A DNA stretch of 64,000 nucleotides, taken from IMG/VR virus record IMGVR_UViG_2778261035_000005, one strand, 5' to 3'. A program made the translations under genes and the position numbers. The notes under the pieces were generated by a model. It saw nothing but the letters and a program-made list of their open reading frames with translations. It was not told the DNA's origin and did no database searches. Position 1 is the stretch's first letter. Each line of letters starts with the position of its first letter. Shown here one piece after another: positions 3,179-50,385 of this stretch. The stretch is from a virus. Taxonomy: Duplodnaviria > Heunggongvirae > Uroviricota > Caudoviricetes.

Positions 3179-3259
3179 AAAATAAGCGTGGAGAACACCT
3201 CCACGCTTGATTCATTGGTGAAACAACTTTTCTTTTGCCAAACCACAAAAGAAAAACAC

Positions 3260-4441
3260 ATGAGCCTTTATGTTATATCAACATTTAGGTTGGTAACAAT
3301 ATTGCCTGTTAAAAGTGGAATTATCGTGAGCGAGCTGAAAGAGTTAATTACCGAATTAGATTTTGAACAATGGTTGGACACTGAAGGTATCGTTTATCGA
3401 CGTGGAGGCGTGAGTACTCGCGGTCGTGAAGTGAATATCAAGGAGTGTCCGGTATGCGGCAGCTCCAACTGGAAGGTATATTTCAATCTGACCAGTGGCG
3501 TCGGTAAATGCTTCGCTGGTGATCATCCCGAAGAGATTCAGTTCAATAAGCTGGTCTTCCTCAAGCACTACAGCGGCAAATCACGACGACAGTTCGAGGA
3601 ATATGTGCAGAACGCCCTTCTTTCCCAGGGGTGGGCACCAAAGAAAGAAGAGCTAGTGCTTGCAAGCACAGTCGAGTTAGAGGGGCCAGTTGCACTCCCT
3701 CGTCATTACGAACTTCCTATAGATGGCCGTCTTCCAGACTATCTGGTTGAACGAAATATATCGCCTGAAATGGCAAAGTATTTTGACCTACGATACTGCG
3801 TCGAAGGTAAGCACGCCTATGTAGATCCGTATACAGATCAGGTTAAAGGACAGATATTCGATATGCGAATACTGATACCGGTTTACGATCTGGATGGGGT
3901 AATGAAGACATTTCAGGGACGAGACATTACCGGTACAGCAGAACGCCGCTACCTCTTTCCTATGCAGCTTCCAGCTTCAGGTAAGTTTCTCTACAACGGC
4001 TATAATGCAGTCGGCAAACAGACTGTAGTTGTCTGTGAGGGGGCGTTCGATGTTATGGGGGTTAAACGAGCTATTTTTGACGAAGAAACATTACGTGATT
4101 ACGTGGAACCAATAGGAACGTTCGGGATGCATCTATCTGGTAACACCACTCAGGATGCAGAAGATCAGTTAGGCGCGTTCCTGACGCTCAAGGCGCGTGG
4201 GTTACGTAATGTGATCATGATGTGGGATAGTGAAAAGCAAGCTATACGAAACACTATGGCCGCAGCCAGGCGACTGACCAGTATCGGTCTTAATGTGAAA
4301 ATTGCATGTTTGGGCGAGGAAGGACTCGACCCCGGCGATGCGACCCCGGGGCAGATTATCAAAGCCTACTATTGCGCAAAACCTTACTCACGACAGCTTG
4401 AACTTTTAAGCAAGGTAAAAGGCATAGCAGCATTAGTTTGA
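3260..4441 (+). CDS. DNA primase (zinc-ribbon + TOPRIM)
   Basis: CPVCGSSNW...GKCFAGDH zinc motif; VVVCEGAFDVMGV and MWDSEKQ TOPRIM-like; start moved to ATG 3260 after conserved gaaaaacac context. Confidence 0.7.
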   Translation: MSLYVISTFRLVTILPVKSGIIVSELKELITELDFEQWLDTEGIVYRRGGVSTRGREVNIKECPVCGSSNWKVYFNLTSGVGKCFAGDHPEEIQFNKLVFLKHYSGKSRRQFEEYVQNALLSQGWAPKKEELVLASTVELEGPVALPRHYELPIDGRLPDYLVERNISPEMAKYFDLRYCVEGKHAYVDPYTDQVKGQIFDMRILIPVYDLDGVMKTFQGRDITGTAERRYLFPMQLPASGKFLYNGYNAVGKQTVVVCEGAFDVMGVKRAIFDEETLRDYVEPIGTFGMHLSGNTTQDAEDQLGAFLTLKARGLRNVIMMWDSEKQAIRNTMAAARRLTSIGLNVKIACLGEEGLDPGDATPGQIIKAYYCAKPYSRQLELLSKVKGIAALV

Positions 4442-6225: not shown

Positions 6226-6350
6226 TGGTGAATGCCGGGCAGACTATAAGCCCGGCATCTTCGTATAGGGAACTATTGCGCCTAAAATGATAAGTAGATA
6301 CATACTTAGTTTTTTGTAAGAATACTTTCATCTGTTAGCTAGGAGTTGGT

Positions 6351-10574: not shown

Positions 10575-10649
10575 GATGGTGTAGCTCAGCGGTAGAGCAG
10601 TTGGCTGTTAACCAACTGGTCGGTGGTTCGAATCCACCCACCATCGCCA
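10575..10649 (+). tRNA. tRNA-Asn (anticodon GTT)
   Basis: cloverleaf by hand: acceptor GATGGTG/CACCATC, D-stem GCTC/GAGC, anticodon loop CTGTTAA, T-loop TTCGAAT, CCA end; differs from host-type tRNA-Asn. Confidence 0.85.
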
Positions 10650-10651
10650 AT

Positions 10652-10727
10652 GCCGGTTTAGCTCAGTTGGTAGAGCACCTGCCTTGTAAGCAGGATGTCA
10701 GCGGTTCGAATCCGTTAACCGGCACCA
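10652..10727 (+). tRNA. tRNA-Thr (anticodon TGT)
   Basis: acceptor GCCGGTT/AACCGGC, anticodon stem CCTGC/GCAGG, loop CTTGTAA, T-loop TTCGAAT, CCA. Confidence 0.85.
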
Positions 10728-10940
10728 ACACAACAGGAAAGAGCATTGAGAACCGCCGAGACTGCCCTGTTTGAAGCGTAAGTCCGTGCAAACGTCATAC
10801 AGTGCTCTTTTCGTTGTGGTGAATGCGGCTAAGCGCACGCGGGGAAATGGTTATATTGATCCTTTGTGATGACTATTGGCTCCGTCCACGGTGGATAACC
10901 AGCCAAAGGACACCGGGAAGCACCCGGCACCACAACAATT

Positions 10941-11027
10941 GGAGAGTAGGGAGCATGGTGCTCAAGCGGTCTTGAAAACCGTCCCATTGCGCAAGCGATG
11001 ATGGTTCGATTCCATTACTCTCCGCCA
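10941..11027 (+). tRNA. tRNA-Ser (anticodon TGA), class II with long variable arm
   Basis: acceptor GGAGAGT/ACTCTCC, anticodon loop CTTGAAA, long variable arm, T-loop TTCGATT, CCA. Confidence 0.75.
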
Positions 11028-13196: not shown

Positions 13197-13751
13197 TCAA
13201 TCTTCCCTTTGTTTTGGGTAGTGTTGTGTTCGTATCGCATAGGAAGCTCCGTCATTTAAATAAGTTAGGCCACGCTCTTGTGTAAATCTCTTCACATATC
13301 TCTTGTATGTGGCCATCAGTTCTTCGCGTTCTGCCGCAAAGAATAAAATCTGTATGCCTTCATTGTCGGCAACTTTGAGCATTAAGTCAACTAAAGTACC
13401 GTAAAGGTATTGAAGTTCACCTAAAGTAAGATTAAAAGACCCTTCGGGTTTGGCAAATACGTTAATTGGCTCTTCCGCTCCAAGAGCGACATTCTGGAGC
13501 TGTTCTTGCTGCCTGTCAAGTTGAATCATGTCCACAAAACTAACGACAGATACACACAACCCATAAACATCAGCACCTAACATATTATGCATAGTTTCTG
13601 CGGCAACAGGATCTAAAGAAGGAGGGCAAAAGACTAAACGGTATCTAGCCTTACGAGCTTCATTGCCAGAGAAAACAAAGTCTATATCTAAATATGACAG
13701 ATCACCCGGCAATGAAGCCAAACCAGGTGTAACCAACTTATGCAAGTGCAT
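13197..13751 (-). CDS. hypothetical protein
   Basis: ORF track; agaggga SD upstream of ATG on minus strand; divergent from recombinase gene. Confidence 0.5.
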   Translation of the reverse strand: MHLHKLVTPGLASLPGDLSYLDIDFVFSGNEARKARYRLVFCPPSLDPVAAETMHNMLGADVYGLCVSVVSFVDMIQLDRQQEQLQNVALGAEEPINVFAKPEGSFNLTLGELQYLYGTLVDLMLKVADNEGIQILFFAAEREELMATYKRYVKRFTQERGLTYLNDGASYAIRTQHYPKQRED

Positions 13752-14018: not shown

Positions 14019-15122
14019 ATGAAAAATAGCTTTGACAGAGCACGCGCTGCGGAGAACACCTCAAAAGAGGCGATTGAGTATCTCGAAAGAGCATCTCAAA
14101 TGCAGGCCGTTATGATCTCCCAGGTCAGCAATGACATGAGATTCTCGGACGCATTCATGTTATTCACTCGCTTATCTCTGCTGATAACAAGACGTCGGCC
14201 AGAGATCGCTGTTCATTGTATTTTGATACATGTTTTGCCGCACATTGCCGATGTAAAAGTAAGTGATATTAATAGGTTCATGGTGAACCAACTGGTCAAC
14301 CCACTAATACTGGATGGCAAAATTGTTATGGGTCGCCGCGTTTTCTCTCTGATGAAGCAGTTCCTCAGCTGGTGCGCCTTCCAGGGGATGATCGACGTGT
14401 CACCGTTAAACGATATGTCACTTAACAAAGTTGCCGGTGGCGCAAAGCCCACACCTCGCGAGCGGAAGCTAACCGACGCAGAGGTATGGGTGTTCTGGAA
14501 TATATGGGACTACTTCAATGTGTGTGCTGGTACAAAATGGGCGGCCAGGCTATGTCTTGTATCCGCAAGACGACCTGACGAAGTACTGCGGGCTAAAAAA
14601 AGTGAGTTCAACCTCCAGCGTGGGGTTTGGAATCAAGGCAAGAGAAACAAATCAGCCCGTGAGCATTCTCTGCCTTTAAGCACATTAATGCGCACATGCA
14701 TTGAAGAGTTATTCGAATATGGTAAAGGCAGCCAGTGGCTTGTGCCTTCGAATAAAAAAATCGGGAAAGATCTTCCGATGTCTAAAGTGGCAATAGCCCA
14801 GGCATTACGCCGTATCCTGGAACGACCAGAACTGATGGAGCTTGAGCCATTTACACCACGAGATTTGCGTCGTACTGCGCGTAGTTACTTCCCAGCATTA
14901 GGCATAAGCCAGGAGGTATCACGTAAAATCATGAACCACAGTCTTGAGGGGATAGATCGGGTCTACGACCGGCACGATTATATGGACGAGATGCGAGACG
15001 CCTTAGAAAGTTTCTCGACGTACATCGCATCAATCGTAGAGCAACCGGATTTAGACGAAATTGACCACAAATTCAAGGGAGATCGTCTATCGACAGAGCT
15101 TATTCGTGTAAATTTTTCATAG
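14019..15122 (+). CDS. tyrosine site-specific recombinase (integrase/resolvase family)
   Basis: C-terminal catalytic region PRDLRRTARSYF...HSLEGIDRVYDRHD (R, HxxR, Tyr); N-terminal ~120 aa lacks an obvious arm-binding domain. Confidence 0.75.
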   Translation: MKNSFDRARAAENTSKEAIEYLERASQMQAVMISQVSNDMRFSDAFMLFTRLSLLITRRRPEIAVHCILIHVLPHIADVKVSDINRFMVNQLVNPLILDGKIVMGRRVFSLMKQFLSWCAFQGMIDVSPLNDMSLNKVAGGAKPTPRERKLTDAEVWVFWNIWDYFNVCAGTKWAARLCLVSARRPDEVLRAKKSEFNLQRGVWNQGKRNKSAREHSLPLSTLMRTCIEELFEYGKGSQWLVPSNKKIGKDLPMSKVAIAQALRRILERPELMELEPFTPRDLRRTARSYFPALGISQEVSRKIMNHSLEGIDRVYDRHDYMDEMRDALESFSTYIASIVEQPDLDEIDHKFKGDRLSTELIRVNFS

Positions 15123-48792: not shown

Positions 48793-48815
48793 TTTGTTCT
48801 GGCGTCTGTAATTAG

Positions 48816-48878
48816 CCTGCTTCTGTATATATAAATAACTACATATTAATTATTAATATACGGAAGCAGGCTGTTTTG
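48816..48878 (+). terminator. long hairpin with A+T-rich loop followed by T-run (copy of element at 882-946)
   Basis: arms cctgcttctgtatat / atatacggaagcagg then ctgttttg. Confidence 0.45.
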
Positions 48879-48977
48879 TATCAGAGACTCCAGACCTGAA
48901 CATCACTACAGAATCCACTAGAACCCCTTCCCAGACGCTTTAAAATCGATTTTATGAACCACTTTAAGGAAACCAAC

Positions 48978-49208
48978 ATGTCATACCCGACTAATGTCGT
49001 TGCGCTCGTAGAGAGCGATTTTCTGGCCCAGGCTCGTGAAATGATGAAAGATCGTGAGCAGGCTTTCAACTTGTACGAATGGGCAATTAAGTGCTTGCAT
49101 CTTGGCGAGCATCGCGAACTTGTTGAACAGCTTTTAGGTGAGTTGATCAATGAGGTGTTTGCCTTGAATGTTCAACTACATGGTAGAGAAAATAATCAAT
49201 CACAATGA
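48978..49208 (+). CDS. hypothetical protein
   Basis: aagga SD 7 nt before ATG 48978 (track start 48954). Confidence 0.4.
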   Translation: MSYPTNVVALVESDFLAQAREMMKDREQAFNLYEWAIKCLHLGEHRELVEQLLGELINEVFALNVQLHGRENNQSQ

Positions 49209-49791
49209 TAGATAAGTACAAACCATTCATAAAGTGAATTGTAAGTGCTAAGATCTGATAGTTTCCAGTCGTAGACTGGAGACTCGACCTGATGGGTGGG
49301 GGTAAGCGTCACTGGCGTCAGGTTTAAAAAAGCTCACTACCAGCGTAGAACTGGTGCCGTTTAGGTGTCGGGGAAGGGGGAACCAAAGTGAGCAGAGACA
49401 AGGGTCACTTTATGATTGTCGAGTCTGGGGTGTTTCGAGAGGTTGAATCCAGTACTCCCCTTCATAAAGTGTGGGAAGATCTCGGTTCTGGGGTGCTGTC
49501 ATCCATAACTTCCCAAGTCTAAGCTGGCAGTAGACTTAGACCATAACTTTTCAGGTTATGAAACGACCAGGTTGGTGAGAGATTTTTATACTCACCTCCC
49601 TGGGAGAGTATTACCTGAAAAGACAACCTCTCACTTCGTTCGAGGTGAACTTCACTCACTTCGTTCGTTCAGTTCAGGTTTATAAAAACCTGTTCTGGGA
49701 AGTAATTTGTTTATTTTAATAATTATTAACACGCACGCGTGTGCGCACGCGCGAGGAAAAAATCGGCGCGGCGCTTGATTCAGGAGTTTAT

Positions 49792-50385
49792 ATGACGACG
49801 AAGACACCAGCCCGATCGCAAGCAAAAACTCGCAAAAAAGCCAAAAACAAAAATTCTCCCCGCACCAATCCCACAACGCCTGTCGTAGAGTTCAATCCCC
49901 AGCTTAAAACCGTGAAAATCTTCAGTGATGGCTCTTGCCTTAAAAATCCGGGTGGCCCGGGCGGTTACGGTATCGTTCTTCAGTATCGTGGAGAGGAACG
50001 CGAGTTCTCAGATGGTTTTCATAGCACCACCAATAACCGCATGGAGATGATGGGGGCACTTATCGGGCTGGAGCGTTTGAAATATCCATGCAACGTTATT
50101 TTGCACTCTGATAGCCAGTATCTGAAAAACGGCATGACACTGTGGATGAAATGGTGGAAACGCAATGGATGGATGACTTCTGACAAAAAACCGGTAAAGA
50201 ATGTTGATCTGTGGAAGCGTCTGGATGAGGCCGCAAGTCGACATAATGTTCGCTGGAAGTGGGTTAAAGGCCACGCCGGGCATCGTGAAAATGAAATATG
50301 TGATCGACTCGCGAAGATCGCAGCTTTTTCCGCAGCAGATATGCCTCACAAGAAAGATATTGGTTTTGTTTATAACAAACAGTAA
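49792..50385 (+). CDS. rnhA: ribonuclease HI with basic N-terminal extension
   Basis: [61 protein letters not shown] near-colinear with bacterial RnhA; aggag SD before ATG 49792. Confidence 0.9.

Follow-up and report, generated by a model that had tools for sequence, protein, structure and literature searches.

The window analysed here, a 64,000-nucleotide stretch of Caudoviricetes DNA, contains at positions 49209-49791 a non-coding interval within an SSU5/pHCM2-like phage-plasmid, a group of elements common in clinical Enterobacteriaceae. The interval runs from the stop codon (49206-49208) of an 84-aa open reading frame (ORF) to the ATG of rnhA at 49792. A sequence-only reading of this DNA had described it as ORF-free and structured, and every feature it listed is found at the given coordinates or close to them. 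No ORF inside exceeds 46 aa, and stops or frameshifts disrupt each of the eight small ORFs in some relatives, leaving none conserved. The upstream small ORF (48954-49208, + strand; 84 aa from its first ATG, 76 aa from a conserved ATG at 48978; phrog_5343) is the conserved left neighbour of this slot and occurs in both clades of the family described below, A and B, and in Moellerella plasmids. A single-sequence AlphaFold model of the 76-aa protein is helical (pLDDT 72.5), and it has no Pfam match, a best PDB match of E = 2.9 and a PHROG of unknown function; a role as a Rop-like or RNA-binding partner was considered and rejected, with neither a Pfam hit nor a PDB match better than E = 2.9 to commend it. 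On the other side, rnhA (49782-50385, + strand) begins with a Shine-Dalgarno sequence, AGGAG (49782-86), and encodes an RNase HI (PF00075) that has a basic N-terminal extension of 39 aa. The gene is missing or replaced in Cronobacter L003, Kluyvera L088 and Klebsiella L093 and L094, all of which keep the intergenic element, and in the last three the genes that follow lie on the opposite strand. The usual neighbour, rnhA, is dispensable, and since loss or replacement of the gene leaves the element in place, the two are linked by position only.

Of 5,426 complete E. coli genomes, 232 carry the element, as do 687 PLSDB plasmids, and it is near-invariant in hundreds of SSU5/pHCM2-type phage-plasmids from E. 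coli, Klebsiella, Salmonella and relatives. Its core is 90.6-95.0% identical to that of relatives, compared to 64-78% for the flanking coding sequences; the most conserved part of this replication-gene neighbourhood is an RNA and not a protein gene. The Cronobacter lineage of clade A is 68% identical; the element of the Cyrano phage-plasmid is 97.6% identical to that of the window. RefSeq annotates no feature for the element, the Cyrano annotation gives it a 44-codon ‘hypothetical protein’ instead, and our literature search on SSU5, pHCM2 or phage-plasmid non-coding RNA (ncRNA) found no description of it; the paper on the Klebsiella p2 plasmid contains no transcript data. A search for distant homologues among species-representative genomes, using the upstream small protein, returned only two Kluyvera loci, and there are no paralogues of the RNA within the 64-kb window. 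One alignment (A5), which includes the unrelated contig L051, served for the downstream region only.

An independent, structured RNA expressed in lysogeny

Positions ~49261-49720 constitute an independent ncRNA gene of approximately 460 nt on the + strand, with both ends predicted. Structured RNA had been one of three functions proposed from the sequence, and it is now strongly supported because covariation, a conserved promoter, G.U pairs in excess on one strand and RNA-seq published for a near-identical element all agree, in a region with no conserved ORF. The predicted sigma-70 promoter (49226-49254, + strand) comprises a -35-like TTCATA (49226-31), a 17-nt spacer, an extended TG (49246-47) and the -10 hexamer TAAGAT (49249-54). 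The pattern TAnnAT is invariant in 14 of 14 representatives, at least 90% of these have the G of the extended -10, and a TTnAnn hexamer keeps a constant 17-nt spacing amid variable surrounding sequence in every lineage. A consensus promoter scan passed over this site because it matches the consensus at only 8 of 12 positions. The direct repeat TTCATAAAGTG, to which attention had been drawn, is indeed present at 49226-36 and 49461-71, but it is incidental: the first copy, which falls within the -35 region, is found in the E. coli lineage only, and the RNA shares 11-mers of this sort with the window at chance level (21 observed, 14 expected).

Transcription is documented in published RNA-seq of Cyrano, where across ten samples the feature CYRAN_81 has log2(fpkm+5) values of 6.8-10.35 against 3.1-5.8 upstream and 2.6-5.0 downstream, and is listed as an expressed ‘moron’ at 12-fold over local background in lysogens (PMC9928086). 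By our comparison this single internal 135-nt feature, of unstated strand, lies ~10-40-fold above CYRAN_80 and CYRAN_82 across the ten samples; these are the counterparts of the upstream small ORF and of rnhA respectively, and both are silent in lysogens. CYRAN_81 shares its condition profile with the repressor and integrase genes and is expressed at the level of the master repressor. The transcript is made during lysogeny, that is, in the plasmid state, while its neighbours are silent, and the reported ‘moron’ is better read as an RNA.

The folded + strand has a minimum free energy of -167.6 kcal/mol (z = -4.6), and its 126 predicted pairs remain paired in 96.9% of cases across relatives. Conservation and compensatory change, also proposed as a test, bear out the structure, with 30 compensatory pairs compared to 11.6±2.5 in shuffled alignments (none of 500 shuffles reaches 30) and 5-6 in slid controls; covariation supports 10 of the 18 helices. 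G.U cells number 204 and A.C cells 15, an excess that fixes the strand as +. Substitutions track base-pairing and not codon periodicity, and unpaired positions are nearly as conserved as paired ones, about half of them being invariant.

The transcript opens with a stabilising 5' hairpin, and at least ten helices of its fold are backed by compensatory changes. This hairpin, H1 (49261-49283), begins at the predicted transcription start and has compensatory changes in five of seven pairs, its stem reading CCAGTC/GACTGG, CCGGA/TCCGG, GGCAGAT/ATCTGCC or TTCGA/TCGAA according to lineage. H2 (49286-49324) has a G-rich 5' strand, GAUGGGUGGGGG, and 15 pairs, of which three are compensatory and several are invariant G.U. 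The H3 multiloop domain (49332-49393) contains an invariant ACCAGCG..GAAC and the G-rich GGGGAAGGGGGAACCAAAG; H3 itself has seven pairs, three of them compensatory, and covariation support is absent from its inner helices H4 and H5. Most of the signal, 17 of the 30 compensatory pairs, comes from the central domain (49406-49541), which consists of the arms H8-H9-H10 (49406-49471; 3, 4 and 1 compensatory pairs) and H11-H12 (49472-49515; 3 and 1) and the hairpin H13 (49517-49541; 5). A covariance model of this domain (R1) finds it once in the window, at 168.6 bits. The arm H14-H15 (49548-49621) ends in a variable apical loop; H15 has 11 pairs, two of them compensatory, and H14 is conserved without covariation support.

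Towards the 3' end is the hairpin ACCUC[UCACUUCGUUC]GAGGU (49626-49646), and CUCACUUCGUUCG recurs at 49655-67, the whole forming a block that is invariant in clade A apart from the Cronobacter lineage, where the second copy is deleted. The tandem repeats reported here are real insofar as there are two exact copies of CTCACTTCGTTCG (49630-42 and 49655-67; 0.22 expected by chance), but they lie 25 nt apart and are not strictly tandem. The 11-nt loop of the hairpin also occurs twice in an unrelated phage contig (L024), enclosed by other self-complementary stems; there, the hairpin motif and a GC-rich/purine motif are found inside the gene for a replisome organiser, beside an AT-rich stretch. Origins of the lambda type lie within replisome-organiser genes, by an AT-rich stretch. 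The RNA closes with a long imperfect hairpin and U-rich tail (49658-49722; apex CAGGUUU/AAACCUG at 49675-92; 12 pairs, 87% paired, three compensatory), which is terminator-like in most lineages, with the Klebsiella lineage, which has no U-rich tail, as an exception; the terminator scan called no canonical terminator at 49658-49722.

The long-range complementarity noticed in the initial reading exists, between GGAGACTCGAC (49278-49288) and GTCGAGTCTGG (49418-49428), with nine complementary nucleotides. The helix (49283-88 with 49418-23) is kept in all lineages, that of Cronobacter maintaining it by four double changes. It uses bases that also belong to H2 and H9, both of which have compensatory support of their own, and was set aside because it competes with these better-supported local helices; it is a possible alternative or tertiary pairing.

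At and beyond the predicted 3' end lies a composite module. An AT-rich spacer (49703-49729), variable in sequence and length (~25-50 nt) among relatives but consistently AT-rich, leads into the GC-rich, perfectly alternating pyrimidine-purine tract of 24 nt (49730-49753), which is present as originally described, has hairpin or palindrome and Z-DNA potential, and lies outside the conserved RNA core, past its predicted 3' end. The tract is polymorphic in length, with deletions in three relatives (L053, L067 and L080) and a shorter form in the Cronobacter lineage. It is followed by AGG, an A-run and TCG (49754-49765), the run having six A here and 5-10 in relatives; a Klebsiella variant reads GGAAAAACG at this point. 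In L067, L079, L080 and L088 homology stops right after the AGG/A-run motif, which is therefore the 3' limit of conservation when rnhA is replaced. The Cronobacter lineage retains GCGCGAG(G)..AAA, and the module as a whole is kept across clade A, including that lineage and variants without rnhA.

Relationship to known RNAs

Searching the whole window with the 4227 covariance models of Rfam 15 at gathering thresholds, a scan that the sequence-only reading had recommended, returned two tRNAs only. The set includes ROOL, GOLLD, RNase P, tmRNA, 6S, RNAI and the riboswitches, none of which match the RNA region; relaxing the limit to E<=10 gave a best hit there to an HCV stem-loop model, at 21.4 bits where the gathering score is 56, placed over the GC tract. 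The same scan found no match for the element of clade B and nothing at the Moellerella locus. Clade B is a second Klebsiella clade in which an unrelated structured RNA occupies the same slot. Comparing the two RNAs with blastn, nhmmer --max and covariance models of the central (R1) and 5' (R2) domains, with filters off, gave best E-values of ~0.5-0.8, and on these sequence comparisons we treat them as unrelated or unrecognisably diverged. The family is organised as discrete types with very high conservation inside a type. The catalogue of big bacterial and phage RNAs without an assigned function gains one covariation-supported family.

Like the orphan RNAs ROOL and GOLLD, the window RNA is phage-borne, hundreds of nucleotides long and composed of many covariation-supported helices with conserved unpaired regions; unlike them, it is confined to one enterobacterial phage-plasmid lineage, relies on a sigma-70 promoter for its expression in lysogeny and does not lie beside tRNA genes, and it matches neither covariance model even at E<=10. 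The c4 RNA of P1, the CA RNA of N15 and the CI RNA of P4 are likewise plasmid-prophage ncRNAs expressed in lysogeny that diverge by type, but these are 70-100 nt, processed from operon leaders, and act through short complementarity to nearby targets, none of which was found for the window RNA. Type III toxin-antitoxin systems (ToxI-type) share the layout of promoter, RNA, leaky terminator and downstream nuclease-fold gene. However, the window contains no tandem array of repeat units, and the neighbouring gene encodes an ordinary, dispensable RNase HI with the canonical PF00075 domain.

Two systems in which an RNA serves replication provide closer parallels. RNA II of ColE1/pMB1 is a structured RNA of ~500 nt, transcribed constitutively from a sigma-70 promoter and active in the plasmid state, that ends in GG and an A-run followed by GC-rich DNA and is linked to RNase HI. 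In ColE1 the distance from the transcription start to the RNA-DNA switch is ~555 nt, and the switch falls between UAUGGAAAAA and a following CGCC. The window shows this layout in its sequence, with ~0.5 kb from the predicted start to an A-run beside GC-rich DNA and conservation reaching up to that run, although the ends of the RNA are predicted. It differs in having no sequence or Rfam similarity to RNA II, no antisense RNA I promoter that we could find and no G6 run ~20 nt before the A-run, and in belonging to a phage-plasmid replicon of 105-120 kb with RepA and a copy number of ~5. The extrachromosomal prophages of the mycobacteriophages Alma, LadyBird and RedRock have ncRNA regions of ~400-500 bp that are expressed in lysogeny and needed for replication (PMC7157519). 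They resemble the window element in belonging to plasmid prophages, in size and expression, and in having had ORFs spuriously annotated over the RNA (PMC7157519). Those phages differ in lacking repA, in placing the RNA beside parABS and in infecting actinobacterial hosts; the sequences are unrelated, and the RNA described here shares its plasmid with a RepA replicon.

Candidate functions

By analogy with these systems, our preferred reading, to which we give rather less than even weight, is that the RNA may be a component of an RNA-dependent element for the initiation or control of replication, using the downstream AT-rich, GC-alternating and A-run module. Transcription would proceed for ~500 nt from the promoter, through the folded RNA and into the AT-rich spacer, GC tract, AGG and A-run, where the RNA would stay hybridised to its template; RNase HI, phage-encoded or from the host, would cut the hybrid in the rA:dT run, yielding a primer or opening the duplex, and whether the hybrid forms would depend on the elaborate fold. 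Several observations are consistent with this: the conservation of the module across clade A even where rnhA is absent, the ~500 nt between predicted start and A-run, the RNase HI gene as usual neighbour, the hairpin and GC-rich/purine motifs in the L024 replisome-organiser gene near an AT-rich stretch, and the mycobacteriophage precedent. The discrete types, with an unrelated RNA at the clade B slot, are also the pattern expected of self-specific maintenance determinants.

Against replication, these plasmids already possess a RepA/IncFIB replicon (repA primers are given in PMC9928086), and the copy number of Cyrano is only ~5.5. A - strand promoter scan found no site inside 49261-49720, the sole nearby site pointing away from the RNA, and so no promoter for an RNA I-like antisense transcript; a terminator-like hairpin and U-rich tail precede the AT-rich spacer in most lineages; and the G-run that ColE1 places just upstream of its A-run is absent. 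Among the plasmid records listed, the shortest is ~70 kb and none is a small plasmid consisting of the element only. No DnaA box was found within 10 kb, the 13-mer present twice is the only repeat at the locus, which has no iterons, and there is no GC-skew switch, the skew following gene orientation. Conserved unpaired positions would fit equally well an RNA that acts in trans and has tertiary structure or binds proteins.

Such a stand-alone RNA of lysogeny, acting in trans as a scaffold, decoy or sponge for a protein or nucleic acid of the host or phage-plasmid, or as an RNA-only architecture resembling those of large orphan phage RNAs, is nearly as likely as a replication element, and remains a doubtful but serious candidate. 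In that case the terminal hairpin and U-rich tail would mark the end of the RNA, the GC tract and A-run being unrelated to it. Its own promoter and, in most lineages, terminator-like end, its complex multi-domain fold with about half of the unpaired positions invariant, a lysogen profile matching the repressor and integrase genes, the 10-40-fold fall in expression before rnhA and its retention when downstream genes change are all as this reading predicts, and the presence of a RepA replicon means that a second origin is not needed. Yet no partner is known, and the 11- and 12-mer complementarity of the RNA to other parts of the 64-kb window is at chance level. Action on conserved host machinery predicts conservation between clades, whereas the clade B RNA is unrelated; the module kept in Cronobacter and in lineages without rnhA is left unexplained, and the U-rich tail is absent from the Klebsiella lineage. 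The same want of a complementary target within the window weighs on the improbable suggestion that the RNA has an immunity or regulatory role like that of P1 c4, N15 CA RNA or P4 CI RNA, silencing the downstream lytic genes (rnhA and its operon) or an anti-repressor by base-pairing or termination. Expression in lysogeny at master-repressor level, a position heading a same-strand block of lytic genes, an anti-repressor gene ~1.6 kb downstream in SSU5 and the division into discrete types, as among immunity determinants, would suit such a role; but the anti-repressor is missing from this window's version, the RNA persists ahead of opposite-strand genes, and known immunity RNAs measure 70-100 nt against ~460 nt here.

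The remaining explanations are weaker. The order of promoter, structured RNA, hairpin with U-tract and rnhA, the far greater abundance of the leader relative to the gene, and a second copy of CACUUCGUUCG able to pair either within H17 or within the terminal hairpin might suggest a long cis-acting leader of rnhA, resembling an attenuator or riboswitch. This is very unlikely, being largely refuted already by genomes without rnhA: the element is kept in Cronobacter L003 where that gene is lost, and the next genes are on the opposite strand in Kluyvera L088 and Klebsiella L093 and L094. Further, no known riboswitch or leader family matches, and 460 nt is far above the length of known leaders. At least as hard to sustain is a site acting purely as DNA (pac or cos, a protein-bound origin, a recombination site) or as structured single-stranded DNA, in either case without need of an RNA product. 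The alternating tract, AT-rich spacer and repeated 13-mer do resemble DNA signals, and a hairpin motif of the form stem-[UCACUNCGUUC]-stem is shared with the putative origin of phage L024; however, pairing-preserving changes together with the G.U excess show selection on one folded strand, and the promoter is conserved and its transcript measured. The packaging site suggested by the initial reading is not supported: in the linear SSU5 record of 103 kb the locus is internal, at ~78.7 kb, and remote from both the terminase genes and the genome ends; its alternative, a lytic origin, is unsupported as a purely DNA-level element, with no DnaA boxes, iterons or skew switch and with visible selection acting on RNA pairing, but an RNA-dependent origin is a live hypothesis. 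Least credible of all is that the region encodes a small protein, CYRAN_81 (44 aa, window 49388-49522). The ORF is annotated in Cyrano and listed as expressed, but it has a GTG start, contains frameshifts or internal stops in L050, L005, L004 and L030 and is unrecognisable in the Cronobacter lineage, and its substitutions follow pairing and not codons.

Extending the replication reading, we speculate that SSU5/pHCM2-type phage-plasmids may carry an unrecognised class of self-specific ‘maintenance RNAs’ of ~0.5 kb, with clade A and clade B types, that prime or license a second, RNA-dependent origin beside the phage replication genes; we consider this a possibility, though not a probable one. 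If true, a ColE1-like mechanism would be embedded in a 110-kb temperate phage, and the maintenance RNA could control the change between RepA-driven replication as a plasmid and amplification of the phage type, and might also be the basis of incompatibility types. The maintenance of phage-plasmids matters for plasmid stability, and there are now two testable hypotheses for it, RNA-based control of replication and a trans-acting RNA of lysogeny; the distinct clade A and clade B RNAs at a single slot provide a ready-made functional contrast.

Genomic setting and distribution

The window is a portion of an E. coli phage-plasmid of the SSU5/pHCM2 type, and its genes include a DnaE-type polymerase, ribonucleotide reductase and SbcCD-like proteins. 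A DNA-metabolism block on the + strand comprises, in order, thymidylate synthase, DHFR, a DnaQ-like exonuclease, a Dam-type methylase, a 76-84-aa protein, an ORF-free stretch and RNase HI. The sequence-only reading had singled out that stretch (49209-49791) as a possible structured non-coding RNA, and the finding is real: it holds a large structured RNA that is new, uncatalogued and widespread, and the phage-plasmids carrying it are common in the clinic. The region 49150-49850 is 99.4%, 98.4% and 97.6% identical to Escherichia phages CMS-2020a, PhiR41_1 and Cyrano/pLF82 respectively, and is also matched in Salmonella phage SSU5 and several Klebsiella phage-plasmids. By blastn against PLSDB it occurs in 687 plasmids, nearly all non-mobilizable, from Klebsiella, Escherichia, Enterobacter, Salmonella, Citrobacter, Cronobacter and Shigella. 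Among 5,426 complete E. coli genomes, 232 contain it, almost always on a plasmid, and in these RefSeq annotates no feature beneath it. We found no description of the RNA in the literature, and the suggested covariance-model scan returned no matching Rfam 15 family.

All of the sequence features originally listed for the stretch were found, namely a long-range complement of 9 nt (at 49278-49288 and 49418-49428), G-runs, two occurrences of the direct repeat TTCATAAAGTG, two exact copies of the CTCACTTCGTTCG repeat 25 nt apart (0.22 expected by chance) and an alternating pyrimidine-purine tract at 49730-49753, perfect over 24 nt. The absence of ORFs also withstood comparison; none of eight short ORFs survives across relatives, and each is interrupted in some lineages by a frameshift or stop.

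Elsewhere in the window, a 17-nt inverted repeat at 48814-48872 (AGCCTGCTTCTGTATAT / ATATACGGAAGCAGGCT, 94% complementary, 25-nt loop) falls in the interval from the Dam-type methylase gene to the small ORF. SSU5, Enterobacter and Cronobacter relatives keep this repeat, with matches on both strands, and it could be a terminator or operator. A cluster of three tRNAs (Asn-GTT, Thr-TGT and Ser-TGA) occupies 10575-11027, of which Rfam reports only Asn-GTT and Thr-TGT at the gathering threshold.

Promoter, fold and expression of the RNA

The core of the element (49283-49706) is kept across relatives, being 94.8%, 95.0% and 91.4% identical in SSU5 and two Enterobacter plasmids and 90.6% in a Klebsiella phage-plasmid; the flanking genes share 64-78% DNA identity with the same four. 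In the Cronobacter lineage the core is 68% identical, like its genes. Conservation sets in sharply at about 49283, and the few fixed positions 5' of there are, from their sequence, a predicted promoter. A -10 box, TAnnAT, is invariant across representatives and preceded by TGn (extended -10) in at least 90% of them, while a TTnAnn hexamer stands at an exact 17-nt distance upstream in every lineage, the remaining sequence being variable. The corresponding elements in the window, on the + strand, are TTCATA (49226-49231), TG (49246-49247) and TAAGAT (49249-49254); a consensus scanner missed them because just 8 of 12 positions match. The predicted start, at about 49260-49262, falls on the opening base of a hairpin; the stem of this hairpin varies in sequence between lineages but always remains paired.

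The minimum free energy is -167.6 kcal/mol (z = -4.6) on the + strand and -140.1 kcal/mol on the - strand. RNAalifold predicted 129 pairs from 14 representatives, and across the 126 retained pairs 96.9% of cells are paired. Two-sided changes occur in 30 pairs, against 11.6±2.5 in shuffles (0 of 500 reach 30) and 5-6 in a control with partners shifted by 1-3 columns. Compensatory support extends to ten helices (H1, H2, H3, H8-H13 and H15), with three further compensatory pairs in the terminal hairpin (about 49658-49722). The folded strand is the + strand; G.U cells number 204 and A.C cells 15, so that the same structure on the - strand is just 86.0% paired. Columns are invariant almost as often when unpaired (49%) as when paired (51%), which points to constraints other than helices. 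Every lineage preserves the long-range complement, which overlaps bases of two independently supported helices and may represent an alternative or tertiary contact.

Within the element, the Cyrano record annotates CYRAN_81, a 135-nt 'hypothetical protein' equivalent to the window ORF 49388-49522, which Misson et al. (PMC9928086) count as expressed in LF82 lysogens, 12-fold above local background. In S1 Table of that study (log2(fpkm+5); 10 samples from LB overnight, B1, B6, and macrophages at 1 h and 6 h), CYRAN_81, counted as a single internal feature without stated strand, has values of 6.82, 6.92, 9.34, 9.02, 6.94, 6.89, 8.97, 8.23, 10.35 and 10.30. The upstream ORF (CYRAN_80) ranges from 3.1 to 5.8 and RNase H (CYRAN_82) from 2.6 to 5.0; hence, transcription of the RNA takes place in the plasmid state, without co-expression of either neighbour at a similar level. 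The CYRAN_81 profile tracks the putative repressor and integrase. With compensatory changes, a conserved promoter and published RNA-seq all bearing on it, the element is very probably an independent, folded, lysogeny-expressed RNA gene.

A 184-aa ORF on the - strand (13197-13751; phrog_28788) adjoins the integrase gene (14019-15122) and, judged by size and position, appears to correspond to CYRAN_43, whose expression in LF82 lysogens, 723-fold above the local background, is the highest of any phage-plasmid gene (PMC9928086).

A different RNA at the equivalent locus

In a sister clade, thirty phage-plasmids of Klebsiella (pCAV1099-111 is one) encode a small protein 45-51% identical to that of the window, and usually an RNase H gene too, between which lies a different conserved non-coding region of about 500 nt (3226-3800 in the pCAV1099-111 contig, L089; also L090 and L092-L095). 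Its predicted fold comprises 154 pairs, with compensatory changes in 18, and it is equipped with a -10-like box and a 5' hairpin of its own. No relationship to the window RNA was detected by blastn, nhmmer or two covariance models, and no Rfam family matches. Neither RNA has a homologue in a distant relative, Moellerella wisconsensis plasmid pNX2019-MW3 (L091:3680-4650), which carries the small protein, an extra 113-aa ORF, about 970 bp of unannotated DNA and a type I restriction gene.

The downstream module and possible roles

Beyond the terminal hairpin the order is a U-rich tail (in most lineages, absent in Klebsiella), an AT-rich spacer of constant composition but variable sequence and length, an alternating GC tract with deletions in some relatives, AGG, A(5-10) and TCG. 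In four rnhA-less variants (L067, L079, L080 and L088) homology stops directly after the A-run, and the Cronobacter lineage retains a short GC tract and GAGG..AAA; the module is thus conserved independently of rnhA.

A hairpin at 49626-49646, in which the stems covary around a constant 11-nt loop (UCACUNCGUUC), also occurs in an unrelated environmental phage contig, L024, at 6304-6330 (+) and about 13571-13596 (-). One copy there lies within a 442-aa replisome-organiser-like ORF, beside an AT-rich stretch and a GTGCGCGCACGAAAGGAA motif, an arrangement that, by analogy, resembles a lambda-type origin within the O gene.

The closest analogues by layout are ColE1 RNA II, the origin RNAs of extrachromosomal mycobacteriophage prophages, the large orphan phage RNAs ROOL and GOLLD, and the short immunity RNAs of P1, N15 and P4. 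Our leading, though tentative, reading is that the RNA is an element of RNA-dependent replication initiation or control. Conservation of the AT-rich, GC-tract and A-run module, whose boundary is the limit of conservation, favours this reading, as do its position about 500 nt from the start (a spacing comparable to that in ColE1), the neighbouring RNase HI gene, the type-like divergence between the two clades, and the joint occurrence of the hairpin and a GC/purine motif in the putative origin of L024. Plasmid prophages offer a precedent in the mycobacteriophage origin RNAs expressed in lysogeny (PMC7157519). Against it, these plasmids already possess a RepA/IncFIB replicon, an antisense promoter was not found, the 3' hairpin is terminator-like in most lineages, and there are no DnaA boxes, no skew switch and no mini-replicons. 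We offer the link to replication as a testable hypothesis.

The main rival, a scaffold or decoy RNA acting in trans, is possible and nearly as likely as a replication role; an immunity RNA is unlikely. A role as a cis leader of rnhA is improbable and largely excluded, given that the element persists without a following RNase H gene in Cronobacter (L003), before two opposite-strand genes in Kluyvera (L088) and before an opposite-strand gene in Klebsiella (L093 and L094). A site acting only as DNA is slightly less probable still, and a small protein, with no short ORF intact across relatives, is very doubtful.

At 49730-49765 and in homologues (L053, L067, L080 and others), the GC tract (deletions of about 10 nt) and A-run (5 to 10) are length-polymorphic among otherwise near-identical plasmids, which suggests slippage or secondary-structure instability. 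In several records, SSU5 included, the annotated rnhA ORF is longer and begins within the non-coding module; in the window, a 39-aa N-terminal extension rich in lysine and arginine (49792-49908) precedes the PF00075 domain of RNase HI.
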